Positions 8,082 to 38,751 of a stretch of 39,956 bases of DNA are shown in pieces. The notes below the pieces were generated by a model. It did not search any database, was not told the origin of the DNA, and worked only from the letters and a program-made list of their open reading frames with translations. How positions within the stretch are numbered: position 1 is the stretch's first letter; each line of letters starts with the position of its first letter. Location of the stretch: the IMG/VR virus record IMGVR_UViG_3300032608_000514, positions 1-39,956 of that record; one strand, written 5' to 3'. This DNA is from a virus (lineage: Duplodnaviria; Caudoviricetes). The translations under genes and the position numbers were made by a program.

Positions 8082-8116
8082 TTCCTATTCCCCCCTTAAC
8101 TGCTTAGTTACAAGTG

Positions 8117-8281
8117 TTAAACAAACCTAGGAAACTCCCTCTTTGTTTTTTTAGGTTCTAGTTCAGTAAGGCGTTCCCTTAATAGGTTCTCATAATCTGC
8201 TAGCTCAGCTATTGTCATAGTTTTGACATCCCGTTCATGGTAAGCTACTAAACGCTTGTGATTCGCCTCTGTCATTGCCAT
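8117..8281 (-). CDS. Hypothetical 54-aa protein (site-bounded, not in ORF track)
   Basis: MAMTEANHKRLVAYHERDVK...REFPRFV*; AGGAGG RBS; TAA inside the site arm. Confidence 0.7.
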   Translation of the reverse strand: MAMTEANHKRLVAYHERDVKTMTIAELADYENLLRERLTELEPKKTKREFPRFV

Positions 8282-8317
8282 CTCTCTTTACCTCCTTTAA
8301 CTATCGTTATGGAACTG

Positions 8318-8647
8318 TTAAGCTTTAAGCAAGTCTTTGAATTTGTCTTTGAATTTGCTCATCCCTTCACGTAGTTCTTCATTGTGCTTTTGAGTAGCCT
8401 TTGCTGTTTCCTCTCGGTTCATATACTCATTTATCTGATATTGTAAGGCGCTTATGTCGTCTATATTCATCCACTGTGCTGGATGCGGATAATCAAGCGG
8501 GAATATTACTTTTAATTGAGTCTCTGGCTTAGTATAAGCGTGTTTTTTCCCATCTTCGTCTTCCCAGTAATCGTCAGGCACCCAAGTTTGTTCTTCGAAG
8601 GTAAAGCCTAAATCCTTTGCCTTTGCTAATAACTCCTGCCAGTTCAT
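8318..8647 (-). CDS. Hypothetical protein (site-bounded)
   Basis: RBS abuts one site; TAA lies inside the next. Confidence 0.75.
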   Translation of the reverse strand: MNWQELLAKAKDLGFTFEEQTWVPDDYWEDEDGKKHAYTKPETQLKVIFPLDYPHPAQWMNIDDISALQYQINEYMNREETAKATQKHNEELREGMSKFKDKFKDLLKA

Positions 8648-8680
8648 TGTTTCTTCTCCTTAACTTTATCGTTGCATGTG

Positions 8681-9574
8681 TTAACTTTCAAATAGCTCGT
8701 TCCAGCGCTCAATTACGTCAGCTATTTGCTCACGTTCTTTCTCTTGCTCAGCTACAGCCTCTTCCCACTTTTCCTCATCTCTCTCAGCTAAGATATGCTC
8801 CTCTATTAGGTTGGCTATGTATTGTGGTTCCAGAGCATCTAGCTCCCATGATTTGTCTCCGTATTCAGCTACATAACTACCGAACCGGGAATCAGTCATC
8901 TTAGCTGGGTTAGGCGGTGGCTGTACCTCTTCTATTTGCTCCATGGTTAAAGCTATACGCCTAACTTCAACATCTCCATAGCTGAATAGGTCTAGCCTAT
9001 CTTTGATGTCTCGTGTCATATCAATACCGCTAGGGTCGTGGTCTCCTAGGTGAAGGATGATAGTTCTTTGGTCGTTCTGGTCGTACCGGAGTATCCGCCT
9101 AGCAGCACGCCACATCTCTGAATCTGAGACATAGCCTCGGCACGAAAAGAAAGGTACGTCGTTCTCCTTACATACCTTCTCAATGACGCCTACTAGCGCA
9201 TCCTTCTCAATCCATACTTCCATTCGGACATCTTGGGTAGCCCATAAGTCTCTGTGGTAGCCGTCTCTTGCTGATTGTAGTATGCTTTGAGGGTCGTCCC
9301 AAGAGCTAAGTTCACGTAGGAAGCGAGTACGGTCTTCAATAGCGTTCCAGTCAATCCTACCGGCACGCCTAGCATCACTAACAATAGTACCTAGCTTATT
9401 GTAGGCTGCCTCAGTGTTAAGCAACAATGCTCTGGCTACAAACTGGTAGTATAGCTGCCTTAGTGTGAGGCTGAATCCTTGCGCTTGGTACTGTTCGATT
9501 ATCTGCTCTGCAGAGGCGATGGTTTCCTCTGTCTGAGCTGTGAACTTCTTCTTTATGTAGGCTATTTTTGGCAT
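8681..9574 (-). CDS. Topoisomerase VI subunit A/Spo11-like protein (wHTH + TOPRIM)
   Basis: TLRQLYY (candidate catalytic Tyr), VWIEKDAL, RGY, GDHDPSG, RIALT, WELDAL. Confidence 0.8.
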   Translation of the reverse strand: MPKIAYIKKKFTAQTEETIASAEQIIEQYQAQGFSLTLRQLYYQFVARALLLNTEAAYNKLGTIVSDARRAGRIDWNAIEDRTRFLRELSSWDDPQSILQSARDGYHRDLWATQDVRMEVWIEKDALVGVIEKVCKENDVPFFSCRGYVSDSEMWRAARRILRYDQNDQRTIILHLGDHDPSGIDMTRDIKDRLDLFSYGDVEVRRIALTMEQIEEVQPPPNPAKMTDSRFGSYVAEYGDKSWELDALEPQYIANLIEEHILAERDEEKWEEAVAEQEKEREQIADVIERWNELFES

Positions 9575-9941: not shown

Positions 9942-9942
9942 A

Positions 9943-11328: not shown

Positions 11329-11333
11329 ATTAT

Positions 11334-11394: not shown

Positions 11395-11420
11395 TAAAAG
11401 CCATTTAAGGCTAGGCTAGG

Positions 11421-13793: not shown

Positions 13794-14402
13794 TTAGCCG
13801 AATATCTCTTTAGCTTCCTGCATAGCTTTAGGTTTCACTTGAAACATCTTAACATAAGTTTTTGCCATATTGATATCTGCCCAGCCCATATAATATGTGA
13901 GAGAAAGTTCATTCATACCTCCAGCAACTAACATAGAAGCGCAAGTTGCCCTCATACAATGCGGAAATCCTGTTTTACCGGCAGGAGCAGGAAACTTGAC
14001 ATTGGCTCTCTTTAAGATAGTTTTTACCCTGTACCAGACACCTATTCGAGATAAGTTCAAGCCGTAGGGCTGCATTCTGAGTAGCTCGCTGAGGTCTTTG
14101 CGTAGCCTTTCTGGTATATGCACTGTTCTCGCTCCAGCTTTCGTCTTTGGTCTCCACTCGCCTCCCCTGTTCCTAGCACACTCAGCACAGTTGCACTTCT
14201 GAGCAGTTGGAATACGCAGTTCGCCTTCAGCAGTTATCCAAGTGCTGTTCATATGGCATAGCTCTGAAACTCGCAAGCCTAAGAACATTAGGCACTTGAT
14301 GATAATACGGTCAGTTAAGTCAAGGCATGCTTTCAGCGCAGCTTCAGCTTGGTGTTCGGATAGCGCATAGTCAGCAGAATCTCCTCTACGATACTTCTTC
14401 AA
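13794..14402 (-). CDS. Tyrosine recombinase, catalytic domain only, with a Cys-rich insert
   Basis: GLRVSEL (R), KTK (K), HCMR (HxxR), MGW, KTY (Y). Probable TTG start at 14402 overlaps the methylase stop. Confidence 0.88.
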   Translation of the reverse strand: MKKYRRGDSADYALSEHQAEAALKACLDLTDRIIIKCLMFLGLRVSELCHMNSTWITAEGELRIPTAQKCNCAECARNRGGEWRPKTKAGARTVHIPERLRKDLSELLRMQPYGLNLSRIGVWYRVKTILKRANVKFPAPAGKTGFPHCMRATCASMLVAGGMNELSLTYYMGWADINMAKTYVKMFQVKPKAMQEAKEIFG

Positions 14403-18196: not shown

Positions 18197-18658
18197 TCAT
18201 TTCTTACCTCCTTGGAATAAGCTAAACGGAAACATCAGTGGTGGCTCTTCTTTCTTTGGTGCTTCCTTGACTTTCTCTTTCACTACTACCTCAGGAACCT
18301 CTATTTCAGTAACTGCTGGCCTTTCTACTACTGCTCTTGGTAGTGGCGGTATCCCTTCCCGCTTTATCCTTTCGTATTCACTACTCGGCACTCGCCACTG
18401 TCCGCCTAGAGGCTTTATAGCTTTGATACGCCCTGTTCTAACCAGCTCAAGTATCCAAGAGTGGCCGTAACTGAGCTCTCTGGCTATCTGAGCTACGCTG
18501 TAGTACTTACCGGCTTTTATCTCAGCTATCTGTTCAGCAGTAGCTTCACCTTTCTCTATTGGGATTTCAGCTGGCTTTTCTTCTGAAGGTGCTGGCTGAG
18601 TAACCTCTGTAGCTTCTACCTTTTCCTCCGCTTCAACCGGCTCTGCTTCCTTTGCCAT
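18197..18658 (-). CDS. HTH_17 (MerR/excisionase-like) DNA-binding protein
   Basis: YYSVAQIARELSYGHSWILELVRTGRIKAIKPLGGQWRVP; first gene of the minus arm. Confidence 0.8.
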   Translation of the reverse strand: MAKEAEPVEAEEKVEATEVTQPAPSEEKPAEIPIEKGEATAEQIAEIKAGKYYSVAQIARELSYGHSWILELVRTGRIKAIKPLGGQWRVPSSEYERIKREGIPPLPRAVVERPAVTEIEVPEVVVKEKVKEAPKKEEPPLMFPFSLFQGGKK

Positions 18659-19315: not shown

Positions 19316-19819
19316 ATGGCAACAGCAGTAAAAGAGGAAGTATTTGAGTTAGGTCGTAATACAGTTATTTCAGGCTCAACTCTCATATCAACCGGTGAAA
19401 GAGACTTAGCTGCCGCAACTGTGGATTATAGCCCGCAGACAATCTGGGAGTTTCCAGTACCGGTAGGCCAGGCCCTTGTTTTTACCGGCGAGGACATCGT
19501 CTCAGCTTACCTAGAAGATAACGATACGGAAGCTGAGTGCATCGGTACCACAGTATATGTAGATGTGGTGGTGATGGACAGCTCCAAGCAGAATGTGAGG
19601 TCGATACTGAACCTATGCCAGTACGGTAATATGAAGGAGTTTGCAGAAGTTACCAAGCTTCAGCATCTGGATATTGCACCCGGTGACCAAGTCATAGCCA
19701 ATGAAGGCGAAAGAGTCTGCTTCCGGGTCAACTCAAGAACCTCAGCTGAGGCAACACTTGATGCTTCTGATAGCTACTTCCGCCTGACCTGTAAGCGTGT
19801 CCGCCACACACTCTTTTAA
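19316..19819 (+). CDS. Single-jelly-roll capsid protein, paralog 1 (P23-77 VP16-like)
   Basis: IWEFPVPVGQALVF, LCQYGNMKEF, VIANEGERVCFRV, LDASDSYFRL; resembles VP16 as recalled from memory. Confidence 0.7.
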   Translation: MATAVKEEVFELGRNTVISGSTLISTGERDLAAATVDYSPQTIWEFPVPVGQALVFTGEDIVSAYLEDNDTEAECIGTTVYVDVVVMDSSKQNVRSILNLCQYGNMKEFAEVTKLQHLDIAPGDQVIANEGERVCFRVNSRTSAEATLDASDSYFRLTCKRVRHTLF

Positions 19820-19831
19820 TAGGAGGAAAAT

Positions 19832-20011
19832 ATGCCAGGGCCGTTTAAGAAGTTGGTAAGCCTCTTTAACAGTGAACAAGAGAGAGATGAAGCCTACAGC
19901 AGGAAGTTGGCAAAGGATTTCGAGATTGCTGCTGGGCATAGAGTAATCAGGAAAATAACCCGTGGGAAAGGGAAGGAAACCCTTTACGGTTACGAAGTAA
20001 AACGAGTATAA
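19832..20011 (+). CDS. 59-aa basic hypothetical protein
   Basis: MPGPFKKLVSLF...YGYEVKRV; AGGAGG RBS. Confidence 0.65.
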   Translation: MPGPFKKLVSLFNSEQERDEAYSRKLAKDFEIAAGHRVIRKITRGKGKETLYGYEVKRV

Positions 20012-20021
20012 GGAGGAAGAA

Positions 20022-20489
20022 ATGCCGGGAATTATAGAACAGCCATTTACATTGTACCAAGATGACCCTGTAATATCGGTCGCAGATGGTGTAGCAAGCA
20101 CTTGGTCAGACATCTGGAAGTATCAAGTGCCGATAGGGGTCTCGCTAATCATCAAGCCAGAGCACACCCTTTCGTTGTACCTCGCTATAGCAGGCCCAAC
20201 TGAGATAGCTGCTGCTGATGCTACTTACAATACCGGTATGGTCAGGGTTGAGAAGCGAGATGCCAGCGGAAGTGATGTCCAGGTAATCTGCGGACCTAGA
20301 ATCTACAGAGCTTTCAGACAGTTCTCAGATAGAGAGAGGCTTGCTCACTTTAACGTGCCTGCGGAAGGCGTAATCATTGGCGAGCGAGAGTACTTTGTTA
20401 TGCTTGCTTATGATGATGGCACCATCAGCGAGACTGTCTGCTACTTCGAAGCACGCATCGCCAAGGTAAGAAAAGCCTTAGGGGCATAA
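20022..20489 (+). CDS. Single-jelly-roll capsid protein, paralog 2
   Basis: WSDIWKYQVPIG..LIIKPEH.LSLYL...GP.IY..F..F...CYFE. Confidence 0.7.
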   Translation: MPGIIEQPFTLYQDDPVISVADGVASTWSDIWKYQVPIGVSLIIKPEHTLSLYLAIAGPTEIAAADATYNTGMVRVEKRDASGSDVQVICGPRIYRAFRQFSDRERLAHFNVPAEGVIIGEREYFVMLAYDDGTISETVCYFEARIAKVRKALGA

Positions 20490-20524
20490 TATAAATAGTA
20501 TAACTTAAAAAGGAGGGTAGGATA

Positions 20525-20974
20525 ATGCCAAAAGTTGTAGAAGAGGCTTATGAAATATCCAGTATTGACACCACAAACATAACCGCGGCTGATAGTACTG
20601 CTAGCAAGTGGAGCGACTTGTGGAAGTTCCAAGTGCCTACCGGTGAGGCTTACATCTTAAAGCCATCACACCACTTCAGTGTTTACCTCGATGAGGCTAC
20701 TGGAACTACAGAAGCTGGAGCCGGTGATGCTCGACTGAAGATTGAGGTTAGAGACCAGTCGGAGCACGATGCTAAAAGCATCTTTGGGCCTTCGCTGTAC
20801 GCTTCTTGTAAGGACTTCGACAATGTAACTAAGATGGCAACGCTTGACCTCCAGAACGATGTATCAGTTGAAGAGAAGTTCTGGATTGTTGTCATGGTCT
20901 ACGATGCGACAGCTCAAGCCGTTGCTTACTGCTACTTCAACCTTGAAGCTGTAAGAGTCCGGTCAGGTATATAA
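20525..20974 (+). CDS. Single-jelly-roll capsid protein, paralog 3
   Basis: WSDLWKFQVPTG..YILKPSHHFSVYL...FGPSLYASCKDF...VEEKFWIVV...RVRSGI. Confidence 0.7.
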   Translation: MPKVVEEAYEISSIDTTNITAADSTASKWSDLWKFQVPTGEAYILKPSHHFSVYLDEATGTTEAGAGDARLKIEVRDQSEHDAKSIFGPSLYASCKDFDNVTKMATLDLQNDVSVEEKFWIVVMVYDATAQAVAYCYFNLEAVRVRSGI

Positions 20975-20986
20975 AAGGAGGTAAAG

Positions 20987-21439
20987 ATGGCAAAAGTCAT
21001 GGAAGAAACTTGGCCTCTTATTAGTAATGACACTACGGCGATACCAGCAGCTAACAGGCATGATGGGACGGCTGCAGGATGGGCTGATATCTGGGAATAC
21101 CAAGTACCAAGCGGACAGGCTCATATACTGAAGACCGGTCACCATGTCAGCTTTTATATGAATGATGGTTCTGAGGTAACTGCCGGCAAGGGCTTTCTAG
21201 AGATTGTCGTTAAAGACCAGAGCAAGCAAGACGAATCAACAGTCTTTGGGCCTATTCTCTACGATGCTTGCAAGGACTTTAATGATGAAGAGAAGATGGC
21301 AAAGCTAAACCTTCCAGGCGGTGATATAGTCGTAGAAGAGAGATTCTGGATTGTCGTTAGGGGCTACAGCGACGCTGCTATTGACGAGTCAGCTAGTTAC
21401 TTTAGCTTTGAAACTATAAGAGTCCGCTCCGGCATTTAG
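20987..21439 (+). CDS. Single-jelly-roll capsid protein, paralog 4
   Basis: WADIWEYQVPSG..HILKTGHHVSFYM...FGPILYDACKDF...VEERFWIVV...RVRSGI. Confidence 0.7.
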   Translation: MAKVMEETWPLISNDTTAIPAANRHDGTAAGWADIWEYQVPSGQAHILKTGHHVSFYMNDGSEVTAGKGFLEIVVKDQSKQDESTVFGPILYDACKDFNDEEKMAKLNLPGGDIVVEERFWIVVRGYSDAAIDESASYFSFETIRVRSGI

Positions 21440-27409: not shown

Positions 27410-27434
27410 CTAACAGTTCCTAGCGAAGTGTTAA
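27410..27434 (+). repeat. Isolated boundary site CTAAC-N15-GTTAA in the plus arm
   Basis: CTAACAGTTCCTAGCGAAGTGTTAA directly followed by AGGAGG and an ATG at 27447. Confidence 0.8.
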
Positions 27435-27446
27435 AGGAGGGGATAA

Positions 27447-27605
27447 ATGGGAAAAGCACTAGCTTATAGCTTTATCAACAAAGAGACGCGAGAGAGGACA
27501 GCTCGAAACCTGCGTAAGAAAGGATATAAAGTGAAGGTAAGAGGAGAATTTATTATAACCAACGCTAGTGGTATAACAGTCCATCAAGCACGAGCTGAAA
27601 GATAG
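27447..27605 (+). CDS. 52-aa basic protein following the boundary site
   Basis: MGKALAYSFINKETRERTARNLRKKGYKVKVRGEF...; AGGAGG RBS. Confidence 0.65.
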   Translation: MGKALAYSFINKETRERTARNLRKKGYKVKVRGEFIITNASGITVHQARAER

Positions 27606-28043
27606 TTAGCTTAACACTCACAAACTGTTATCAGACACACTGAGAGCCAAATCTAGGGGTATGGAAAGGATTACTGGATGAAAGGGTTGGATATAGCTGG
27701 AGCCACACTGAATTTGCTAGGCATAGTCGCCTTAGTGTTCTTTATTGGCTTCATAATCTACATGGAGAGAAGGAGGGTATAATGTCAATTTCATGGACAA
27801 CTGTGTGGAGTGTAATTGTAGCACTGCTAATCCTAGCACTCATCGGTACTTTTCTGAGCGGGGCTAGGAGGACAGCATAATGGCAAGACGGAAGATGTAT
27901 AGGTTAAAACTAGAGAGCTTCAGTGGACTTAAGTATGAAGCACTTCAACTTGGGTATTCTGTTAAGGATGCTATAAGAGCTGGAGTGCAGTCAACTGAGA
28001 AACTACTTACTATTGAACCAGTGAAGAGAAGGAAGAGAAAGTA

Positions 28044-28316: not shown

Positions 28317-28317
28317 C

Positions 28318-28447
28318 AGCAGGGGTGCTAGGGTAAAACCGGATAGCGCTTAACTGCCGAAGCGTTAAGACCTCGCCCTCCCGTGTGGTATCCGGTCTGT
28401 AATCGGGGAAAACTGCGAAGCCAGGGACGCAGTTTAGCACTCCTGCT
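28318..28447 (+). ncRNA. Candidate multi-stem structured RNA
   Basis: 13-bp closing stem plus nested stems of 8, 6 and 7-8 bp. Confidence 0.55.
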
Positions 28448-28462
28448 ACCTAGGAGGTTAAA

Positions 28463-29293
28463 ATGCCGGCGGGAGTAATAGCAGGAACTATCATAGGTGG
28501 CTTCAGTGTTTGGGCTGCAACAAGAGACGATAAAGGCAATGCACTACTTGAGGAAGTAAAAACAAAGAAGCCGCCGTTCTACAAAGTAATCACCCTTGAT
28601 ATGGCTACGGCTAGGGATGAAGTGGAGTTCAATGAGGTAGCTGACTTCATCCTCATCGACAACCAAGACGCTTCAGTCCCATGCTATATCAGGCTCAACG
28701 AGAAGGGCTTTGATAAGCTAGATATCCGCAAGTACTCAAGGTTTCAAGGTACTTTATGGCGCTTCTTCATTACTAACTCTGCAGGTAGCGGTCATATTGA
28801 CTTACTCCTGTGCCGTGGCTTGGCATTTCTAGCTGAGGAAGTAGAAGCGGGAGCGGAGAAGCTTCTACCATTCCACACTCTACGCAGCGATAAAGACAGC
28901 CACTTCACCGGTGCTATAGCTCAGAATGCAGTAGAAGAAGAAAACCTTACAGACCTTATTGGAAACAAGGTCAAGATTACAGGCATTATTGTCTTATCTG
29001 ACCAGCAACTGGATTACCGAGTTATCTTCTATAGTACTGATGGCTTTGCCAACACTGACCTCAACTTAGATACTCTTATCAACGAAGTAGAGCTCGACTT
29101 GCCTAGCTATGGTTTCCGTATCGCCGGTACGGGTAAATACTGCATGGTTGTTACTGGCTTAGATATCGACTATATAGACGACGATGCTAGCGAAGAGCTT
29201 CATGTAGCACTGCAGAACTTATCAAGTACTTCAAAGACAGCAGGAGCTAACGGAGAAGTTATCCTGCGGTTTATCTATGAGGAGAGAGACTAA
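28463..29293 (+). CDS. Two-domain beta-rich structural protein (vertex/penton candidate)
   Basis: Beta-strand periodicity; precedes the adhesin and spike genes. Confidence 0.5.
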   Translation: MPAGVIAGTIIGGFSVWAATRDDKGNALLEEVKTKKPPFYKVITLDMATARDEVEFNEVADFILIDNQDASVPCYIRLNEKGFDKLDIRKYSRFQGTLWRFFITNSAGSGHIDLLLCRGLAFLAEEVEAGAEKLLPFHTLRSDKDSHFTGAIAQNAVEEENLTDLIGNKVKITGIIVLSDQQLDYRVIFYSTDGFANTDLNLDTLINEVELDLPSYGFRIAGTGKYCMVVTGLDIDYIDDDASEELHVALQNLSSTSKTAGANGEVILRFIYEERD

Positions 29294-29580
29294 TGCGTAT
29301 TGACCAGATGTTAGCGCCTCATACCATGCTTATGATACACGGTGCAACACTGCACGGTACGCTTGACGATGATGGAGGTGAAGCTTGTGATTGTGGTTTC
29401 GAGTATGGGGAGACAGATAGCTATGGAACTACTACCAGTACTGAGAGCAAGGGGACGGGTGAGACGTTCTCTCAAGTACTTACCGGGCTACTGCGAAATA
29501 CCACCTACCACTTTAGAGCACTGGCAACCAATGTAGGAGGAACTGGATACGGCGATGATGCAACTTTCACAACATTTTAG
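29293..29580 (+). CDS. FN3-like domain lacking its first strand
   Basis: ATLHG..DDGG...GFEYG...YG....LTGL..NTTYHFRA.ATN..GT.YG.D.TFTT. Confidence 0.75.
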   Translation: MRIDQMLAPHTMLMIHGATLHGTLDDDGGEACDCGFEYGETDSYGTTTSTESKGTGETFSQVLTGLLRNTTYHFRALATNVGGTGYGDDATFTTF

Positions 29581-29591
29581 AGGAGGAAATA

Positions 29592-30503
29592 ATGCCAGAC
29601 TGGACAGCTGAAGAGAATTGGCCTGAAGCGTGGGCTGTAATTACTTTCTCTCCTATCGTAGTTGAGTCCGGAGAGTACATTGTATATGTCGGCGGGGTTA
29701 CTATCACCAAGTTCTATAAGTACAATCTCGACACGAACACCTGGACAGAGCTGACGGACCCGCCTGCAGCCCTTTATGCCCAGCTTAGTATGTCTCCCGA
29801 TGAGACTAAACTGGCCGGCCATGTAGCCAACGGCACTCAACTATTTATCTATACTATCTCTGGTAATAGCTGGGCGAGTAGTTCTGTTGCTCCACAGATG
29901 AATGGTAATAATATCATGATACAGTCAACTGTGTGGGCCGATGATAATGACACTGTGTGGTGTCAAGTACGAGCTTCCGTTGGTGCTACTTTGACAGTCA
30001 AGTTCTTCAAATATGTAGTGTCGATTGACACTTGGACACAATACACTAATTCAGTAACGCCTGCTACTCATAACTCAATATGTTTATGTATCAATACTGC
30101 TGGAACCATATTGTATGCTGGTCAGTGCGGGGCGACTTACCGAGCTACTACTAAGTACACCATAGCTACTGATACTTATGGTTCTGGTCCAACTCTCCCT
30201 TCAGCATATTATTTTACCCTCTCTGCTGACCAACATAAGCTCTGGTATGGACCTAAGCGAACTTCACCAGCAGCTCATGTTACAATCACGAACTTCGTCA
30301 ACCCTGATACTGAGGGGTTTGAGGGCGTTTTCCCTGAGCTTGATGCTGCTAATAAACCAAGCAACCTCTCAACTGGAGTTTATGGAGTAGTCGTTGCGAT
30401 TGCGGACTATAAGATATCTGAGCCAAAGAACTGGTCTTATATAATAACACCAGCTACACCTATCCCTACTGTAACAACTGACCCAGCTACAGCAATAAGG
30501 TGA
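29592..30503 (+). CDS. Kelch-like beta-propeller (receptor-binding candidate)
   Basis: FYKYNLDTNTWT, FIYTISGNSW, FFKYVVSIDTWT and TKYTIATDTY repeats. Confidence 0.7.
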   Translation: MPDWTAEENWPEAWAVITFSPIVVESGEYIVYVGGVTITKFYKYNLDTNTWTELTDPPAALYAQLSMSPDETKLAGHVANGTQLFIYTISGNSWASSSVAPQMNGNNIMIQSTVWADDNDTVWCQVRASVGATLTVKFFKYVVSIDTWTQYTNSVTPATHNSICLCINTAGTILYAGQCGATYRATTKYTIATDTYGSGPTLPSAYYFTLSADQHKLWYGPKRTSPAAHVTITNFVNPDTEGFEGVFPELDAANKPSNLSTGVYGVVVAIADYKISEPKNWSYIITPATPIPTVTTDPATAIR

Positions 30504-30507
30504 GGAA

Positions 30508-33500
30508 ATGAAAGTAAGTCAGATATTACCAAAGACGAAAGTAGCCGGGATAGCACCGTACTTTGAGCTACTGGAGAATGACCAGACATACCCTGCCGGC
30601 ATGTACCGGTGGATAGCTACCGGCGATACAGTGGTTCTTCAGAGAGCCTTAGCAGTAGATTGGAGCTCAAGCAGAGCAGTCTTCACAGTTGATAGCGCCG
30701 GTGCCATTACCCTTGTCAGTGCCTTAGATATGGGCACTAACCTTATCAATAACGTAGTAGACCCGGTATCAGCTCAAGATGCAGCTACTAAAGCCTATGT
30801 GGATGCTGCTATCCTTACCAAGGATACTTTCTTAGAGCTTAATGATACGCCTAGTAGCTTCACTGCTAATAGGATGGTAGCTGTCAATGCTGCAGGTAAC
30901 GCTCTTGAGTGGAAGACTGATGCTCAGATATTAGCTTTGCTCAGTGGTGATGCTGATGCTGCCTTCGACTGGAATGACCAGAACTTAACTGGGGTAGGTA
31001 GTGTAACTGTAGATGCTGCCACAACTTATCCTATACGCCTATCAGGCACTATTGATAGTGGAGCGGGTATCTACGCCACTCACAGCCAGACTGCGGCTTG
31101 CTATGCCGGTATCTGGTATGCGCTTACCTCTACAGTTATATCTGGCGATGTTACTGCTATAAGAGGTATAGCTACAGGTAATGCGGCTAGTGCTGGAGCC
31201 AATGTCAGAGGCGGGTACTTTGAATCTAAAGCTGGGGCTAGTAAGTTTGCAGCTATGCTTGAAGGTGCTTTATTCCATGCCGACTACTCTGCTGGTAGCG
31301 TAACAATATCAGGTGATGTCAGAGGCTTTACGGCTCACATAAGCCAAGGAGCTAGCCTTAGTGCTGCCAACCTCTATGGTGGTCTTATCAACATCCAGAC
31401 TAGGGGCGATGAGACTATTGCCACTGATGATGTCGGGCTGATGATAAGGAACGAGGCGGTAGGTGGAACTGGCAGACAGATGGATGCTGGTCTCAAACTA
31501 GCCGACCTAAATCTTAGTGGTGGGGTTAAAGGGTTTGGCTATGGCATAGACTTGAACGGGGTGAATATTGCCACTGCCGATATTAGGTTTGCCAACGGTG
31601 AGACAATAACTGGGTTAGACGATACACCTGTAGATGCAGCTACGACTTCAGCTATAAGTTCTAACTGGGCTTTTGACCAAGGAACTGTAACTAGGGAACC
31701 TACAGGATTTCCTAACCTCACAGATACGTCTACGCCAACTTTCTCATCTTCAACGATAACACTGGCAAAGACTAATGGTAGTTTTGACTTTTATATTCAA
31801 GGAGTGAAGTTCGCCAAGACAGCGAATCAGACAGTATCCCTACCAAACGGCGATGCTACTGATATTGGAACATGGTACATCTACTTTAACTCATCGGGTA
31901 CTCTTACAGCTACAAAAACAACTTCATGGGATATAGCTGCTGCTGATGATTGCTCTGTGGCTGTCCTCTATTTTAACGGGACAGCCGGTAGGATATGTGA
32001 TGAGCGACATGGTACAGTTATGGATGCCTCAACCCATGACTTACTTCATTACACAGTAGGAACTAGATATGAGTCTGGGCTAACAGGAACTTTCACTAAT
32101 CCAGCGGCAATAGCCGTGGCTTTGGGTGTTATCAATGATGAAGATTTAGAATATGCTATTGGTGCTCAGACACAGTGTATTCCTTTCTATCATAGTAGTG
32201 GGGTTTACACCTTCGCTGCTGCCCAAAACTCCTATGTGGTGCAGGTATCCGATATATTACAATATGATGACCTGACCGACCTTGCCATAGTTCCCAATAA
32301 TAGTTACGTGGCCTATTGGATATTTGCCACAATGGACACAGTAACCCCTATATGGGTAATGCCTGGTCAAAGGACAGACGTTCTACTCAAAGATGCTAGG
32401 GCGAATAATACTTATGAGTCTTTGTCTTTGGGTACACTACCGTTCCCCGAAATGAAACTGTTGTATAGAGTAATCTTGCGGAGGAGTGGTACTAGCGAAA
32501 CCTATACAGAGACACAGGATTTAAGGACTATTTCTAATCTGCCTGCTGGCGTTTATTTAGCAACAGTCCATAGTTCTTTGACTGGATTACTCAATGATGA
32601 CCATACCCAGTATCTATTAGCTGATGGGACGAGGGCATTGGCCGGTGCTTGGGATATGGGTTCTCAAAATCTGACTAATGTTGATATAGATAGTGGGACT
32701 ATGGATGGAGTAACTATAACTGCACCTGTTCTTGATGGCACAGTTACCAATACTGGTGCTACCCTAATTCTACCAGCCCATTCTATCGGTGGCAAGTTGA
32801 CTGCTGGAGCTAATGAGATAGAGGGTTCTGCCTTTGACATAGATGGCGGAGATATAAGTGCTGCTACTATCTCTGGAGGATTAACTTGGTCTGCTTCTCA
32901 AAATCTTGGTGCTTATACTCACTTTATAAATGAGACAGCCAACGCCTTTATGACCTATGGGCTTACCATAAATCAGGGTGCTGCCGATAATGAAGCGCTA
33001 GCCCTAAAGTCCTCAGATGTTTCTCATGGTATAACAACTCTTGCAGAAGCGGATACATTTGCAACTTTCAAGAAACAAACCCCTGCTGCTGGTGGGTTAG
33101 CAATACGAGGCTATAGAAGCAGTGCTGCCGCTCCTTACCACGCTTTAACTCTGGAAGGTGTGCTTGGCGAGGCGGCTCAAACTACAAAAGCCACTGACTC
33201 ATATGGCATTATAAGCCTCTGGGCATTTATTCAAAGTGGGAGTACTTATGGTGAGGTTGGTGCTAACGGAAATCTGCTATCAATAGTGAATTACGGAACC
33301 ACTCGTTTCATCTTTGACGCTGAAGGAACAATACATCTTTTAACTGGTGATAATGACCTTGATATGCTTGTCCTATCAGGGACTACAGGAACACCTACAT
33401 TAAGTTGGGACGAAGACCCAGGCGTGTTTGTCTTTAACCAACCACTAACCGTGTCTGGCGATGTTACTGTCAGCAACCTCGTCACTGCTGGTAATGTAGA

Positions 33501-34506
33501 TGGTGTAGATGTATCAGCTCATGCCGTTGCCAATACGGGAGTGCATGGAATAGGAGCTTCCACCTTTGCCACTGCTGCTACCCTAGCTACCCATGCTGCT
33601 TTGATAACTGGGGTTCACGGGTTGGTTATAACGGCAGGTAAAACTTTTACCCTGACCAATTCGCTAACATTATCAGGAACAGATGCCAGCACTTTGAACA
33701 TAGGAACTGGTGGAACGCTTGGAACTGCTGCCTATACAGCAACAACGGCTTATGAGGCTTCGGGTGCAGTCTCAACTCACGCAGACCTGACTACTGGAAT
33801 TCACGGAGTCGGAGCTTCAACTATAGCTTCTGTAGCTAATATAGCTACTCATGCCGATAACACAACCACTGCTCACGGTGCAGTTTCGGCTGCTACTGCT
33901 TCAAAGATGGTAGTCAGAGATGCTCAAGGACAAGCCAAGTTTGCTGCCGCTGCTGAGGCTGGAGATGCTTTAATAAAGGGAACTAGAGTTACCACGGCAG
34001 AACTCCCAGCTATGACTGATGAGAAGATATGGAAGGGCACAGGGGCTAGTGTTGAGGAAGTGGATATGCCTAGCGGAGGAACTAAAGAGTTCTTTGTGCC
34101 AGTTACGGGCTGGTGGGGAGGGACACCCGACCTTGGGCTAAAAGGTGCTCTCATAGACGGAGCGGGCAAATATTGCTCAATGACTATTCTTATTCCGCAG
34201 GACTTTACTGCGATTACTTCACTTGAAGTCATATTTCTGCCACAGGCGACAGGAGCTGGAATGAACGTCACCATTACCACTTATTTTGGTGCTTATGCTG
34301 GTGGTGAAGCCTACAATGCTGGCAGTGAAACTGAAGCCGATAGAGCTCTGGGGGCAACTGTTACCGACCAGAACCTTGCCCATGATATCGCAGACCTTGT
34401 AACAGGATTAGTTGCAGGTGATGTGCTAACAGTTACGGCAAACCACCGTGCAACAGCCGTTGCCACTAACAGTTATGTTAGGGGAATAAGATTTAAATAT
34501 AGTTAG
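30508..34506 (+). CDS. Large mosaic spike/fibre protein (1332 aa)
   Basis: DPVSAQDAATKAYVD, DDHTQYLLADG and HAxxxTGVHG repeats; G/A/T-rich. Confidence 0.8.
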   Translation: MKVSQILPKTKVAGIAPYFELLENDQTYPAGMYRWIATGDTVVLQRALAVDWSSSRAVFTVDSAGAITLVSALDMGTNLINNVVDPVSAQDAATKAYVDAAILTKDTFLELNDTPSSFTANRMVAVNAAGNALEWKTDAQILALLSGDADAAFDWNDQNLTGVGSVTVDAATTYPIRLSGTIDSGAGIYATHSQTAACYAGIWYALTSTVISGDVTAIRGIATGNAASAGANVRGGYFESKAGASKFAAMLEGALFHADYSAGSVTISGDVRGFTAHISQGASLSAANLYGGLINIQTRGDETIATDDVGLMIRNEAVGGTGRQMDAGLKLADLNLSGGVKGFGYGIDLNGVNIATADIRFANGETITGLDDTPVDAATTSAISSNWAFDQGTVTREPTGFPNLTDTSTPTFSSSTITLAKTNGSFDFYIQGVKFAKTANQTVSLPNGDATDIGTWYIYFNSSGTLTATKTTSWDIAAADDCSVAVLYFNGTAGRICDERHGTVMDASTHDLLHYTVGTRYESGLTGTFTNPAAIAVALGVINDEDLEYAIGAQTQCIPFYHSSGVYTFAAAQNSYVVQVSDILQYDDLTDLAIVPNNSYVAYWIFATMDTVTPIWVMPGQRTDVLLKDARANNTYESLSLGTLPFPEMKLLYRVILRRSGTSETYTETQDLRTISNLPAGVYLATVHSSLTGLLNDDHTQYLLADGTRALAGAWDMGSQNLTNVDIDSGTMDGVTITAPVLDGTVTNTGATLILPAHSIGGKLTAGANEIEGSAFDIDGGDISAATISGGLTWSASQNLGAYTHFINETANAFMTYGLTINQGAADNEALALKSSDVSHGITTLAEADTFATFKKQTPAAGGLAIRGYRSSAAAPYHALTLEGVLGEAAQTTKATDSYGIISLWAFIQSGSTYGEVGANGNLLSIVNYGTTRFIFDAEGTIHLLTGDNDLDMLVLSGTTGTPTLSWDEDPGVFVFNQPLTVSGDVTVSNLVTAGNVDGVDVSAHAVANTGVHGIGASTFATAATLATHAALITGVHGLVITAGKTFTLTNSLTLSGTDASTLNIGTGGTLGTAAYTATTAYEASGAVSTHADLTTGIHGVGASTIASVANIATHADNTTTAHGAVSAATASKMVVRDAQGQAKFAAAAEAGDALIKGTRVTTAELPAMTDEKIWKGTGASVEEVDMPSGGTKEFFVPVTGWWGGTPDLGLKGALIDGAGKYCSMTILIPQDFTAITSLEVIFLPQATGAGMNVTITTYFGAYAGGEAYNAGSETEADRALGATVTDQNLAHDIADLVTGLVAGDVLTVTANHRATAVATNSYVRGIRFKYS

Positions 34507-34515
34507 GAGACTACA

Positions 34516-34743
34516 ATGGCAAAGAGAATTAAAAACCCGATTATAGTAACCATTACCAAAAGCACAGATGAGGACGGAAACCCTGTAATAAAAACTGAGG
34601 ACAGATATGGTGTTGAGTGTGATGATGGGTTGTTTGAGAAGAAAGCATTTGTGCCTGCGTGGAGCAGGAACTCAAAGGGCGCATTTAACACTATTCTACG
34701 AGAAGCAATAAGTTTGGCTGAGGAACACGAGGAAATATCTTAG
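34516..34743 (+). CDS. Hypothetical protein (possible spike chaperone)
   Basis: AGGAG RBS; follows the spike gene. Confidence 0.6.
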   Translation: MAKRIKNPIIVTITKSTDEDGNPVIKTEDRYGVECDDGLFEKKAFVPAWSRNSKGAFNTILREAISLAEEHEEIS

Positions 34744-34750
34744 CAGCTAG

Positions 34751-34780
34751 TTGTAAAAGACCGTAGCTTTGTGTTAAAAT
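34751..34780 (+). promoter_or_regulatory. Possible internal sigma70 promoter
   Basis: TTGTAA-N18-TAAAAT with a TG extended -10. Confidence 0.4.
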
Positions 34781-34784
34781 ACAG

Positions 34785-35177
34785 ATGGAGGTGCTAATAA
34801 TGAAGGTCTTTAAGAATACGGTAGTTACCGGCTACGACGGAAAGCCAATCAAGCTCCCTTTTAGAGAAAACGAGGGAGACCCAATGCAGTTTAGGGAGGC
34901 TAAGCTAGACTTCGTCTTGCGGATTATCCTCAACAATGCCCCTATCAGCACCCAGAACGACTCAATACAAGGGCAGAGACTAGCGCAGGCACTTGATGCA
35001 GCTAAAGGAACTATAGAGCTTGAAGATGGTATTCACGACTGGCTGAAGCCGATAGCCGAGAAAGCTACTCCTCAGCTGTTTAGAGTAAACGGTAATGTCG
35101 TCTACAAGTACATCTGTGAAGCTTTTGAGAAGCCACACCAGCCGGTAGAGGAAAAGAAAGTAGAGAAGGCTTCATAA
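34785..35177 (+). CDS. Hypothetical protein, last gene of the plus arm (probable start 34800)
   Basis: GGAGGTG precedes the ATG at 34800; the TAA lies in a boundary-site arm. Confidence 0.7.
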   Translation: MEVLIMKVFKNTVVTGYDGKPIKLPFRENEGDPMQFREAKLDFVLRIILNNAPISTQNDSIQGQRLAQALDAAKGTIELEDGIHDWLKPIAEKATPQLFRVNGNVVYKYICEAFEKPHQPVEEKKVEKAS

Positions 35178-35194
35178 CAGTTCTACAACAAGTG

Positions 35195-35374
35195 TTAAGC
35201 GCTTTCCTTCGCCAAAATCTGCTCTTGTGCCTTGGGTAAATCCCTAGCACAATCTGCACAGATAATACGGTCTCTTCCATCATCCATTACGATTAGAGCA
35301 GCCATTGCTCCACAGAATGACTTATCACAGGCTTCACATTCGTGCGATGTAGTCCATCTACTGAGTATCTTCAC
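35195..35374 (-). CDS. 59-aa Zn-finger protein (site-bounded unit)
   Basis: CEACD...CADCA...KESA*; stop in the site arm. Preceded by a 44-aa TM ORF at 35371-35505. Confidence 0.6.
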   Translation of the reverse strand: MKILSRWTTSHECEACDKSFCGAMAALIVMDDGRDRIICADCARDLPKAQEQILAKESA

Positions 35375-35544
35375 TTTCTATTCCCCCTCGTTTTCTTAAA
35401 TGCTGTAAATCCACTAGCACACCACCACCCATAGAGAAATGCAACTATGAGCACAAGGAAAAAGCATAAAAGTAAAAGTATATCAACCCAGATAGGATTA
35501 GCCATTATTCCCTCCTCTTTAACTTATTATCATCTAGTGTTAAG

Positions 35545-35730
35545 CTAAAAACTATCCCACTCTGGTAGGTTATAGAATGTACCTGGTTCCATATCCACAA
35601 CCTCTATAAGGTATTTATTACCAACCTCGTCATATTCTAGCCCACCCTGAATTTCATCCCATACTGCCATTCTATCTATATAGAGTGGGCATCCTCCCCC
35701 ATCGCCCTCGGTTACTTTCCAAACTTTCAT
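35545..35730 (-). CDS. Hypothetical protein (site-bounded unit)
   Basis: AGGAGG RBS; ends next to a site. Confidence 0.65.
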   Translation of the reverse strand: MKVWKVTEGDGGGCPLYIDRMAVWDEIQGGLEYDEVGNKYLIEVVDMEPGTFYNLPEWDSF

Positions 35731-35742
35731 ACCTTCCCTCCT

Positions 35743-35955
35743 TCAACTTAGTATATGGCAGTGAGCATGGTCTTGTATCTGCCTCTGCTCCCACCGTATC
35801 TTCTTACCGGGAAACATGGAGGCAATAAAACATTTCTCCCACTCAGCGAACTCTGGCCTATGCTCCCTTGATACCATTAGCGGTATGCCACAGGTATGGC
35901 AGATGGTTAAGATAAAGCCATCTGTACTATTGTTTAGCTTGCATAGTTCGCACAT
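35743..35955 (-). CDS. Small HIT-like/Zn-binding protein
   Basis: MCELC...CHTC...DHAHCH (HxHxH). Confidence 0.55.
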   Translation of the reverse strand: MCELCKLNNSTDGFILTICHTCGIPLMVSREHRPEFAEWEKCFIASMFPGKKIRWEQRQIQDHAHCHILS

Positions 35956-35987
35956 AGTATCCTCCTTTAACAGATGTCATTGAACTG

Positions 35988-36305
35988 TTAAGCACCTTTA
36001 AGCCGTTCTCTTAGGATAAAGACAGCTGCTTCCAGCTCATACCCTGGAACAAATAAAGTGTCCCACCTCTTCGGAGTCCCTGCACATGCATGCCAACCCT
36101 TACCCAGCTCAAAGTGCTCACTATCCATATCGAAGGACTCATAACCGGTAGGTCCACCTACAAGGTAGAACCACCAATGGAAGCCAGTCCCATATTTAGC
36201 ATAGTACTCGAGATTTACGGTGGACTCTTCGCCAGTGATGCAGTTGGTCCTAACACATGTTGTAGTGCCCTTTCCATAGACTATGTCTCCTGTAATAGGT
36301 TTCAT
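35988..36305 (-). CDS. Hypothetical protein (site-bounded unit)
   Basis: Fills the interval between two sites; ends GA*. Confidence 0.7.
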   Translation of the reverse strand: MKPITGDIVYGKGTTTCVRTNCITGEESTVNLEYYAKYGTGFHWWFYLVGGPTGYESFDMDSEHFELGKGWHACAGTPKRWDTLFVPGYELEAAVFILRERLKGA

Positions 36306-36341
36306 ATTGCCTCCTTTAACACTAGATTGTCAACTGTTAAG

Positions 36342-36794
36342 TTACTTGAGTTGCTTCTTCCACAATTGTTTATCGCACATCGGTTGGTCAGTTCTTCTAC
36401 CGCTGCGACTTGGGCAATTCCAATCACGACCCTTTATCATATGGTCGAAATGCCAACCGGCAGCTATTAGAGAAATTCCTACCTCATCTTCTAATATAGA
36501 TGTTTGTATCCAGTCAAAACCCATAGCTAGAGCTGCACGAGCACAAGCCGAGTAGAGTTTACTACATACATGGCGAGTCCCATCAGAAACAAGACGAGTC
36601 ACTTCGGCAACTCTATATTGGTTTACTTCTCTTGCTACTGGTCTGCCCACAACGGCAATTCCGTGAATAATATTCAACTCATCTTCACAACCAATGGAAA
36701 AGCGATGACCAACAACACGCTTATGATGACGGTGTAATTGCTCTATCATTTCATTGGCTTGTTTTAATGTCGCTGGGAATAATCTTAATTTCAT
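36342..36794 (-). CDS. XF1762-family / Mom-like GNAT protein
   Basis: LKQAN....HRHH...GHRFSIG, GIAVVGRPVAR, EVTRL..DG, CSKLYSA, E.G.SL.AAGW. Confidence 0.75.
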   Translation of the reverse strand: MKLRLFPATLKQANEMIEQLHRHHKRVVGHRFSIGCEDELNIIHGIAVVGRPVAREVNQYRVAEVTRLVSDGTRHVCSKLYSACARAALAMGFDWIQTSILEDEVGISLIAAGWHFDHMIKGRDWNCPSRSGRRTDQPMCDKQLWKKQLK

Positions 36795-36825
36795 CTTCCT
36801 TCCCTTAACTGTTCATATACTATTG

Positions 36826-37098
36826 TTAAGCGCTCTCTAGATATTGCCGACCTTTATCGGTCAAATAGTAATAGCTATTATAATCATCATGCCACGGTGC
36901 TCTCACTAATCCCTCAGTTCTTAGCTTACCTAAAAGACCACCTCCAGCCATAGGCATCATAGCGCCAAAGGATGCACCATTACCGCACTTATGTATTCTC
37001 TTCCAGCCATCTGAATCTGGCCACATCAGCCGAGCAAATTGCTTAGGGCTATGTATTTGATTATCTCTTATAACTTCTAATGCTTTCTTGAACTTCAC
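36826..37098 (-). CDS. wHTH-like hypothetical protein (site-bounded unit)
   Basis: LGKLRTEGLV...YYLTDKGRQYL pattern. Confidence 0.55.
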   Translation of the reverse strand: MKFKKALEVIRDNQIHSPKQFARLMWPDSDGWKRIHKCGNGASFGAMMPMAGGGLLGKLRTEGLVRAPWHDDYNSYYYLTDKGRQYLESA

Positions 37099-37132
37099 CC
37101 TCTGCTCTCCTTTAACTTACTAACATGTATCG

Positions 37133-37339
37133 TTAAGGCTCATCTACTAAAGTCACCAGCAGTTGCCGAGTAGACTCTGTTGCGTTAAAGCTATGACCGT
37201 CTCTATCATAGCTGTAGTACTGGGGCAAGCCTACTTCCTTGAGCCACTTCTTGAATACCCGTCCGGCATCCCCCGGGGTTAATAGCCTATCGCTAATCTC
37301 GCAACTCTTATTATCCAGCATCTCAGTTAGTGTCATCAT
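37133..37339 (-). CDS. Hypothetical protein
   Basis: TAA lies in the site arm. Confidence 0.6.
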   Translation of the reverse strand: MMTLTEMLDNKSCEISDRLLTPGDAGRVFKKWLKEVGLPQYYSYDRDGHSFNATESTRQLLVTLVDEP

Positions 37340-37590
37340 GCACCCTCCTTCAGGACTTCAATTATATCCTTCGACTCTACGTTTAAGCCAGCTTTAGCTA
37401 TAACTACCTCACCAGACAATCCCATCATGGCCTGTGCAGTAATAAGTACCACAACCGGTATTGCTGCTGCCGGATGACTTATCTTCAACCCTACCCCTCC
37501 TCTTGGCGGTGGCAATAGCCCGGCTTCCATAATTGTCCATCCTTGGAGCTTCTTAATGTCCTCTGGCTTAGTTATAACTAGCTCTGGCAC
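37336..37590 (-). CDS. Hypothetical protein
   Basis: AGGAGG RBS; ATGA coupling. Confidence 0.6.
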   Translation of the reverse strand: MPELVITKPEDIKKLQGWTIMEAGLLPPPRGGVGLKISHPAAAIPVVVLITAQAMMGLSGEVVIAKAGLNVESKDIIEVLKEGA

Positions 37591-37840
37591 CGGCTCATAC
37601 CTCCTACTTTATTTGACCCACTAGAATGCAAATCTACGGGTTTATTTGGCTTATCAATGGTATTGTACCTTCTTTTCATTTAACCCCTTTTAACACTTGG
37701 TAGTGAACTGTTAAGGCTACCTGTGTGGTACTCCTACAAAATATATTGATAAAGTAGGATTTATAACCTAACAGTTGTATGATACAGTTAAGTAAGTACA
37801 AACTACTATGGTAAGGCCTGCTCCTTTACCGGCTTGAACT

Positions 37841-38419
37841 TTACTCGGTACTTTCAGTTTCACCAGTCTTCTCCTGTTCTTTAATTTCCTCAGCAGCTTC
37901 TTTAGCCGCCTCTTCCGCTCTCAAATCATCAGCACAAGTGCCACAGATGTTGCTGTCAACACCTTCTTCAATAGGCTTGTTACATCGAGAACATGCTTTA
38001 GGCTTAGGTTCTGCTTTTTCTTTCTCTTCAGCTTCTAGTGCTGGCATACCGAGGTACTCTGGAACGAATGGCTTCACTGGAACCCAGAAGAGATGACCGG
38101 CATCACAGCTAACATTAACAGCAAGCCCAGCTTTAGGTCCTTTGCTGAGTTGCCCATGCGCTTCACAGATAGGGCACTTACCGGCATCAAGCAGCTCTAT
38201 CTCCTCTTCAGTAAGCTGCCTTTCGCCCTTGCCTACACCTGCTTCTGTTTCCTCAGCTTCAGTACTCCAGATGTGCAGGGTAAGCCTCTCGTCGCCTCTG
38301 ATGCCTTCGACCTTTACTGCATGCTCGACTACGGATATCTCCACAGTCTCGCAGCCGGCAGTTGCCAAGCTGAACAGCGCCTGGCTCATTCCTTTTAACC
38401 TCACTATTACTTTATCCAT
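37841..38419 (-). CDS. Zn-ribbon protein with acidic tail
   Basis: CPIC, CDAGH, CSRC and CGTC pairs. Confidence 0.65.
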   Translation of the reverse strand: MDKVIVRLKGMSQALFSLATAGCETVEISVVEHAVKVEGIRGDERLTLHIWSTEAEETEAGVGKGERQLTEEEIELLDAGKCPICEAHGQLSKGPKAGLAVNVSCDAGHLFWVPVKPFVPEYLGMPALEAEEKEKAEPKPKACSRCNKPIEEGVDSNICGTCADDLRAEEAAKEAAEEIKEQEKTGETESTE

Positions 38420-38751
38420 TACTTTACCTCCTTGTTTTTCTCTCCCCCTTTACCAGAGAGGGCTTGCCACCATTTAACTATTCTGTCCTCATTCATTGCG
38501 CTACGTAATATAAGGTTGCCATCACCATCACGGGTAAAAAGGCGTTCCTCTATCTCTCCAAATATCTGCCTTATGGCTTCCTCTATCTTTGGCTGGAGTA
38601 GGGCAAGGATTTGGCTCTTTACCCGCTCCCTGTCTTCACACCCCAGTCGCCATACTTCACCGTGAATTTCTGTTTTAAGTAAATCGTCTATCTTCTTCTC
38701 CAACTCCTTATCATCCATTTCTTTTCCCTCCTTTTCTCTAATAGCCAGCAA

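Follow-up and report, generated by a model that had tools for sequence, protein, structure and literature searches.

Mosaicism in viruses is usually credited to chance recombination and selection. Standard tyrosine recombination requires identical cores, as at dif- and lox-type sites, and engineered heterospecific lox and FRT sites, which have common arms and incompatible cores, allow exchange between molecules while deletion within one molecule is blocked. One report describes a dif site as a 6-nt spacer, cut at either end, between arms of 11 nt each (PMC8371274), and two others describe the pdif or dif modules of Acinetobacter plasmids, in which several short, two-armed sites acted on by XerC/XerD bound small accessory-gene modules (PMC9455709, PMC7399989). 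XerC/XerD recombination at pdif sites forms and resolves cointegrates, which the accessible part of the same work proposes as a route to hybrids (PMC9455709). Here we examined a set of 25-bp elements, TTAAC-N15-GTTAA, in the viral record IMGVR_UViG_3300032608_000514 (positions 1 to 39,956; this full 39,956-nt stretch is hereafter the window). An earlier note on this DNA had proposed a miniature integron-like or pdif-like system that captures and shuffles accessory genes. The anatomy of the elements and their pattern among relatives, both directly observed, incline us on balance to read them instead as addressed crossover sites for the virus's own small tyrosine recombinase, with the cores as addresses; from those observations we predict that this enzyme is the one acting on the sites, that it binds and cleaves them, and that it needs matching cores.

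The window holds nine exact sites (starting at 8096, 8297, 8660, 35519, 35967, 36316, 36805, 37112, and 37690). Our recount agreed with the earlier note, both in this number and in the six exact and two variant sites between 35174 and 37791. Shuffled versions of the window contained a mean of 0.05 exact sites, none of 100 shuffles reached nine, and when spacers of 10-21 were tested in the window exact matches occurred at 15 only. Two further N15 sites have one mismatch each (27410 and 35174), and two have shortened cores, i.e., 6 bp at 37768-37791 and 3 bp at 27611-27631. They fall into three groups: the main array at 35174-37791, a smaller one at 8096-8684, and the pair 27410 and 27611. Every one of the 11 N15 sites lies at a gene junction, together occupying 11 of the 83 junctions listed in the window, and none lies between the replication, ATPase, or capsid genes, which bears out what had been said of the replication and capsid genes and extends it to the ATPase gene junctions. 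The proposed layout of stop codon, site, ribosome-binding site (RBS), and start codon stood in part. The upstream stop falls within the left arm at 7 of the 11 N15 sites and 1 nt ahead of it at 2, with exceptions at 35174 (a convergent junction, lacking an RBS, at which both arms contain a stop), at 37690 and 37768 (no upstream gene, and a 53-bp non-coding interval enclosed between them), and at 27410, where by our own reading a 25-codon open reading frame (ORF) terminates in the core.

In each of these 11 sites, arms of about 9-11 bp surround a 7-bp core. The outer arm letters are invariant in all 11, the inner three to four are loose, and no two cores are identical. A second array with the same geometry was found among relatives of the virus, which were collected as 41 loci, 39 of them by a metagenome scan with an alignment of the recombinase and two by a genome scan with the ATPase (L numbers denote fetched loci; X1, X5, X6, and X7 are sequencing runs, examined as contigs). 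Most of the 41 are shorter than 6 kb, and in L156, L158, and L160 the stretch is not long enough to show capsid genes; ATPase and capsid genes are common to many of them. One locus, L147, which belongs to the same virus family by its capsid, ATPase, and recombinase (37% identical), carries 13 sites with CTATACAT-type arms, 12 of which match ATACA-N13-TGTAT exactly, with no matches at other spacers from 8 to 19. As in the window, the core measures 7 bp (all 13 sites), an AC pair stands equally far from it, and the cores all differ, their mean identity being 2.2 of 7 in both genomes. Inverted arms, a core of 6-8 bp, and fixed spacing, i.e., the anatomy of tyrosine-recombinase core sites, are thus found in both. 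Between 15525 and 20354 of L147, 11 of 12 consecutive junctions carry a site, and the upstream stop lies 0-9 nt before the left arm at 11 of the 13. A loose pattern covering both arm types gave 12 matches in the window, 12 in L147, and 1 in 77 unrelated viral loci (1.07 Mb). L147 also has a site about 165 bp past its recombinase gene, with core genes intervening before the array, and sites, single or paired, lie less than 1 kb from the recombinase gene in 10 of the 41 loci (L145, L146, L147, L148, L149, L150, L152, L156, L158, and L160), one of the L158 sites having a 6-bp core. The window site at 36805 (plus strand) and the L147 site at 19586 have an identical core; orientation and neighbours differ, and we treated this as chance.

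A position between stop codon and RBS would also suit RNA hairpins serving as processing or translational-coupling signals between genes, and the L147 arms can form stems of 7-10 bp with energies down to -8.4 kcal/mol. However, the window sites fold weakly (-0.3 to -6.4 kcal/mol) and one L147 site reaches 0.0. The 15-letter spacing is kept whether or not the inner letters pair, even at the 4 of 11 window sites where none of the inner four arm positions do so; in addition, one site stands at a convergent junction, and an Rfam scan of the window returned 0 matches. An RNA signal is, in our view, highly improbable. The preference already expressed in the earlier note for a protein-binding site in double-stranded DNA, with tyrosine-recombinase geometry, would appear sound as far as sequence can tell.

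If the cores were addresses, a core should be conserved at an orthologous site even where cores within one genome differ. The first site after the recombinase gene could be compared in seven loci of the L147 clade, six of which are independent (L146 and L148 share their recombinase). In pairwise comparisons, the core was 96% identical, the right arm 97%, and the left arm 62%, whereas fourfold-degenerate sites of the adjacent recombinase gene were 52% identical; under a star model, the chance of so few core changes is about 7e-6. Around this site three unrelated upstream genes and two downstream types assort, and L148 diverges downstream too, from 5 bp past the right arm.

A closer comparison came from run X7, whose contigs include a virus about 90% identical to the window. 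The first contig follows the window over 34751-35205, continues with 593 letters of different sequence, among them a match to site 35519, and returns for 35745-36339, ending at site 36316. A second starts with that same site; where the window has 781 bp (36316 to 37112) it has about 1.4 kb of different DNA, and homology resumes at 37122, one letter into the core (37121-37127) of site 37112. In a short X7 contig, the left arm and core of site 35967 are shared and a different right arm and RBS begin at 35975, one letter past the core; at another place homology resumes at 27621, within the 3-bp core of defective site 27611. The X7 matches to sites 27410, 35519, and 36316 pass an 85% threshold, in order, whereas other window sites reach 78-81%. 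Since no other window site reaches the threshold, the X7 relative has probably retained these three as orthologues in the same order. Whichever flank is shared in the X7 cases, the core lies on the shared side, a pattern that would fit crossover at matching cores. The earlier note's check, whether differences in gene content between relatives break at the sites, gave breaks at sites in X7 and in the L147 clade, with most joint ends lying elsewhere (see below).

These observations bear on the alternative already named in the earlier note, repeated operators. On this view a viral DNA-binding protein would use the sites as operators or to block transcription, and the gene swaps would be a side effect of homologous recombination between conserved islands. 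A candidate binder is at hand in the excisionase-like HTH_17 protein (18197..18658, minus strand), a conserved protein encoded in both the window and L147 and which might equally be a directionality factor; an XRE-type helix-turn-helix gene lies just downstream of L147's first site, and the Sak4-like and PD-(D/E)XK exonuclease genes present in the window could aid homologous exchange. Paired sites flank short non-coding DNA that may bear promoters (37690/37768, L158, and L160), the recombinase is kept without sites in some relatives, and mycobacteriophage stoperators, in the available text, number 24-34 per genome and are mainly intergenic (PMC3029335). Against this, the stoperators described there are asymmetric 13-mers without a free core, while the window sites have dyad arms around a variable centre. 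A spacer that no protein reads should drift, but the orthologous core is 96% conserved while cores within genomes differ; likewise, the breakpoints at 35975 and 37122 fall at the core edge and not in the shared outer arm, where a homologous crossover would be expected. In L147, 11 of 12 junctions carry a site and only 10-25 nt separate site from start codon, promoter scans gave promoter-like matches no more often than chance, and L130 and L133 retain an HTH_17 homologue (43-51%) while lacking sites. Core conservation and core-edge breakpoints thus weaken the operator explanation, and we consider it unlikely, though it is one to be reckoned with.

The enzyme that we propose for the sites is encoded at 13794..14402 on the minus strand. 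The earlier note's identification of this ORF as a tyrosine recombinase held: it was the only one of 84 ORFs scanned to match Phage_integrase (PF00589), and its 202 amino acids comprise a catalytic domain only, with R44, K86, H148, R151, W174, and Y183 as the six catalytic residues, each conserved in at least 90% of 34 aligned homologues. It had 37 further matches, 36 of them 41-84% identical. The structure model (pLDDT 92.7) matches the catalytic domain only of Tn1549 Int, XerA, IntI, lambda Int, and Cre; structures of the Tn1549 integrase rank first in the fold search, with many other tyrosine recombinases scoring almost equally. In NCBIfam, the XerA, XerC, and XerD models matched weakly and fell far short of their cut-offs, and integron-integrase models did not match. 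The nearest annotated relatives are haloarchaeal integrases and Int1 of phiH1, ChaoS9, and phiCh1 (26-32% identity, about 200 amino acids). In Xer enzymes, according to the accessible part of one report, the outer arm letters are read by the C-terminal domain and the inner ones by the N-terminal domain (PMC7399989); an enzyme lacking the N-terminal domain therefore fits sites in which the outer letters alone are fixed. From this we infer that the window recombinase is the cognate enzyme.

A host Xer-type recombinase could instead perform the addressed exchange, as with pdif modules, leaving the viral enzyme for another task such as integration or dimer resolution elsewhere. The window arms resemble the XerD-binding arm of dif, and the cointegrate route of pdif plasmids offers a precedent. 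Moreover, relatedness of the recombinases does not predict the presence of an array: in a recombinase tree (which omits L148, L138, L151, L153, and L162-L168), site-bearing rows cluster no better than in shuffles (70 of 500 as low). The core, however, is 7 bp and not 6, both arms are of one type, the arm sequence varies between lineages of the virus family, and sites adjoin the viral recombinase gene in the 10 loci listed above. We regard a host enzyme as distinctly unlikely, and return to the virus's own recombinase as the probable partner of the sites.

An integron-like or Tn916-like mode, in which individual genes leave as circles and enter other sites regardless of core homology, shuffling the order, would agree with the presence of one to three genes per interval, with stops in the arm, with cores that all differ, and with the Tn1549 integrases heading the fold matches. 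What was found in place of the three defining features of an integron speaks otherwise: the 202-amino-acid enzyme is not of the IntI family, none of the window's 25-bp sites folds into an attC-like long hairpin, and no attI and array stand beside the integrase gene, the nearest window site lying 5.1 kb from it. It follows that this is not an integron. Further, the X7 relative has its sites, and the genes it shares, in the window's order, cores are tied to position and not to one flank, and no duplicated or moved cassette was seen between the window, L147, L130, L133, and L274. Fragments from a second study (X5 and X6) match the window arrangement across sites 27410, 36316, and 37112, and a single contig of run X1 covers 26500-38612 with no joints. 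Capture and shuffling of the integron type, as first proposed, thus found no support, and we consider it very unlikely; by sequence comparison, in-register exchange at core-addressed sites would fit the data better than free shuffling does.

Under the reading that we favour, the recombinase would bind the outer arm letters and exchange strands at the core edges, and exchange would need matching cores. Differing cores would keep neighbouring sites from deleting the genes between them, while an address could recombine with its counterpart on a sister genome or in a co-infecting relative. A crossover at one address would give a cointegrate, and resolution at a second would leave the block between them swapped, so that gene order would be kept and content replaced. 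The stop codon and RBS in or beside the arms would keep an incoming gene expressed within the operon, and the same sites could also resolve genome dimers. A broader claim, which we hold more tentatively and would put just short of an even chance, is that this is natural recombinase-mediated cassette exchange in viruses: a minimal 202-amino-acid recombinase with about a dozen mutually incompatible 7-bp addresses, whose slots are swapped in register by co-infecting relatives, arisen or expanded at least twice in this family of tailless viruses with different arms. Integrons and pdif modules would thereby be joined by a third programmed route to gene exchange, with ready-made orthogonal sites for a very small enzyme.

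Several observations weigh against this reading. The cases that suggest crossover at a core edge are few, i.e., the breakpoints 35975, 37122, and 27621 and one conserved orthologous core. When joint ends between the run contigs and the window were counted (15 of 16 joints were shown, giving 30 ends), 7 of 30 fell inside sites, which cover 2% of the stretch; 23 fell elsewhere, and 4 of the 7 are edges of islands consisting of a site only. Several ends lie at gene junctions that have no site, e.g., 35745 and 37589/37599, the latter being where X7 differs by 503 letters. Parts of X7 between joints that are described here as replaced may in places be diverged homologues. The core-conservation test concerns one site, with 88% conservation in the nine letters downstream and a promoter after it, so the result could also reflect linkage or a function of the site in integration or resolution. 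L130 (58%) and L133 (53%) have the closest recombinases among the long loci and carry no sites, nor does L274; all three carry accessory genes, which shows that the recombinase is kept without an array in the DNA seen (14.4 kb of L130, 19.6 kb of L133, and 13 kb of L274). A homologue of one L147 interval gene occurs in L274, again without sites. The window's recombinase gene has no site beside it, the recombinase tree is no guide to where arrays occur, and the host enzyme discussed above retains some weight. Finally, the excised circles or reordered units that one might look for were not seen, nor was any deletion, in contigs of the four runs, and contigs drop rare variants.

If the reading is correct, some viruses are equipped with machinery devoted to trading accessory genes one slot at a time, and the question of how mosaicism arises could be put to experiment using a single small gene and substrates of 25 bp. 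The two lineages, alike in geometry and different in their arms, supply a built-in specificity control, and a 202-amino-acid recombinase that comes with many naturally orthogonal cores would also lend itself to compact multi-site cassette exchange. Should it be confirmed that the viral enzyme carries out core-dependent exchange, this would be a mode of programmed gene exchange new to viruses.

The main array is read on the minus strand, and site 37690..37714 (minus) is its first in the reading direction. The 6-bp-core variant at 37768..37791 (plus) lies 53 bp from it in non-coding DNA. The non-coding segment 37690-37802 that contains both is 91-95% conserved in two X7 contigs, and 37599-37802, which includes site 37690, is 95% conserved in X7; similar close pairs occur in L158 (1250 and 1303) and L160 (3978 and 4122), and the segment is possibly a promoter-bearing or anchor module. 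The interval 37133..37680 (minus) holds ORFs of 24, 84, and 68 amino acids. At 37589-37599 within it, an RBS and ATG are followed eight letters on by the GTG of the 84-amino-acid gene; since X7 has its 503 extra letters here, this spot looks like the scar of a lost gene. Beyond site 37112..37136 (minus), the interval 36826..37098 (minus) encodes a 90-amino-acid protein with weak likeness to PadR winged helices, and beyond site 36805..36829 (minus; stop inside the left arm) the interval 36342..36794 (minus) encodes a 150-amino-acid Mom-like DNA-modification protein of the XF1762 family; both genes are replaced in the X7 relative. Mom-like homologues in the 77 viral loci have no such flanking sites, including a 79% homologue in L276, so the gene occurs elsewhere without them. 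L276 is a terminase-bearing virus in which a 12-bp direct repeat stands on both sides of the gene (~765-776 and ~1261-1272), hinting at another way for it to move.

At site 36316..36340 (minus) two X7 contigs meet, and the relative has the site and its downstream gene next to other upstream DNA. The interval 35988..36305 (minus) is a single ORF of 105 amino acids, ended by site 35967..35991 (minus; stop inside the left arm). The next, 35545..35955 (minus), has ORFs of 61 and 70 amino acids whose site-less junction is the X7 breakpoint 35745. Site 35519..35543 (minus), with a stop 1 nt before its left arm and an RBS after its right arm, is kept in X7 between flanks that do not align. ORFs of 59 (Cys-rich) and 44 (hydrophobic) amino acids fill 35195..35505 (minus), and the array ends at the convergent junction with site 35174..35198 (plus), a first-letter variant. 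The second, small array (8096..8684, minus) has sites 8096, 8297, and 8660 around ORFs of 54 and 109 amino acids. A 297-amino-acid protein matching PHROG 6247 (8681-9574; annotated DNA topoisomerase, E 1e-114) ends within site 8660, and in the AT-rich region upstream of its gene TTAAC/GTTAA arms stand 22 letters apart (9633-9664), a spacing equal to two core lengths between 9-bp arms and thus either a duplicated-core site or chance. The pair (27410..27631, plus) consists of site 27410, a 52-amino-acid ORF, and the defective site 27611.

Scanning viral genomes for the site pattern, a check suggested at the outset, gave no other array in viral_contigs. Two pattern scans there returned 117 and 63 loci with at most 2 exact sites each, and a third returned 41 loci, of which L247, with seven matches, was rejected because these belong to a small patch of tandem repeats in a tailed phage. 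Scans of viral_contigs at the protein level with a capsid protein, the ATPase alignment, and the Mom-like protein confirmed no relative, and a scan with the recombinase alignment gave four distant, GC-rich loci without sites. A literature search found no description of such viral site arrays, most subscription papers and bioRxiv supplements being outside its reach.

The virus itself can be placed by its capsid. The first 119 bases of the window equal the last 119, indicating a circular genome of about 39.8 kb, and a block of four paralogous capsid genes (19316..21439, plus), conserved in L133 and others, identifies its type. The proteins have 149-167 amino acids, are 26-50% identical to one of their number, and have a single-jelly-roll fold closest to the capsids of SH1, HCIV-1, and P23-77 (Foldseek E 3e-6; VIA Z 16.0, root-mean-square deviation 2.9, 141 aligned). 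Together with a P-loop packaging ATPase bearing Walker motifs, this makes it a Halopanivirales-like tailless virus, an assignment above family level. The window shares this fold and the ATPase with SH1, HCIV-1, HHIV-2, and P23-77; it differs in its four paralogues, which are 10-15% identical to solved capsids, where the solved relatives use two, and is set apart by its circular genome and freshwater source. Family contigs were found inside one Anaerolineales and one Fibrobacteres assembly, one interval gene has an 80% homologue from a Dehalococcoidia assembly, and the RBSs look bacterial; our guess for the host is Chloroflexota. A capsid search of 401 genomes of the phylum of genome G002 matched G002 itself only. 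In the two assembled genomes that hold family contigs, the site pattern was at control level, and hence no host attB or dif site was identified; a tRNA search found none in the window or in five loci. The IME1 viruses of Dehalococcoidia were considered as members of the same family and rejected, being proposed as filamentous, with no jelly roll, repeat, or cassette mentioned in the accessible part of the report (10.64898/2026.09.15.751708).

Other genes deserve mention. The ATPase gene (15073-15800, minus) is broken near 15685 by a short, TGA-containing insertion between Walker A and Walker B. It is also interrupted, by different insertions, in L131, L133, L134, and L140, and is intact in L130, L142, L144-L147, L149, L151, L273, and L274. 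Restoring the frame requires a +1 shift in the window, L131, L134, and L140; L133 has an in-frame TGA and L131 a second, in-frame TGA. A programmed frameshift or readthrough limiting the ATPase is possible. QueF-like, queuosine-precursor transporter (Vut_1), and tRNA-guanine-transglycosylase-like genes lie at 9943-12209 and an N6/N4 methylase at 14399-15076, which, with the Mom-like gene, amount to several DNA-modification routes in a 40-kb tailless virus. A NUMOD3 homing-endonuclease-like gene (17284-18006) is inserted among conserved genes, and its L132 homologue lies directly upstream of the recombinase. In L274, by our own reading, a glycosyltransferase, radical SAM, and epimerase-like block without sites (6123-11197) stands between ATPase and recombinase.

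Returning to known systems, small haloarchaeal tyrosine recombinases (Int1 of phiH1, ChaoS9, and phiCh1, and plasmid integrases) resemble the window enzyme in size, with the low identity given above setting them apart; Int1 of the haloarchaeal phages sits, per record annotation, in an invertible tail-fibre segment. Such systems invert parts of one gene at repeated sites and are not known to bound accessory genes. Stoperators, like the window sites, occur as many motif copies at gene junctions in accessory regions, and are portrayed in the available text as asymmetric repressor sites without inverted arms around an individually conserved core (PMC3029335). The PeSL cassettes of T4-type phages, also motifs at gene junctions and sites of modular shuffling, are promoter and terminator units that recombine by homology and, in the accessible part of that report, lack inverted arms around a conserved core (PMC2839356). 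Integrons share with the arrays their rows of small promoterless genes between recombination-type sites, with stops in or beside an AAC-containing arm, and differ in having IntI and long hairpin attC in place of 25-bp double-stranded sites; in the window, moreover, no site lies beside the enzyme gene and the order is apparently fixed. The likeness to pdif modules lies in the bounding of small modules by two-armed sites. The pdif site, however, is of 28 bp, with 11-bp arms, a 6-bp spacer, distinct XerC and XerD arms, and inversely oriented flanking sites, whereas here a virus has a 7-bp core (11 sites of the window and 13 of L147), arms that agree in their outer five letters, inner-arm types that by our own reading do not alternate along the array, an element-encoded candidate enzyme of a catalytic domain only, and stop codons and RBSs around the arms. 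Heterospecific lox and FRT sites offer the parallel of common arms with mutually incompatible cores; the window sites are natural, number about a dozen addresses per genome, and have shorter arms and a much smaller enzyme, and exchange at them is predicted. As we read them, the sites work like pdif modules or engineered heterospecific lox sites, yet belong to neither family.

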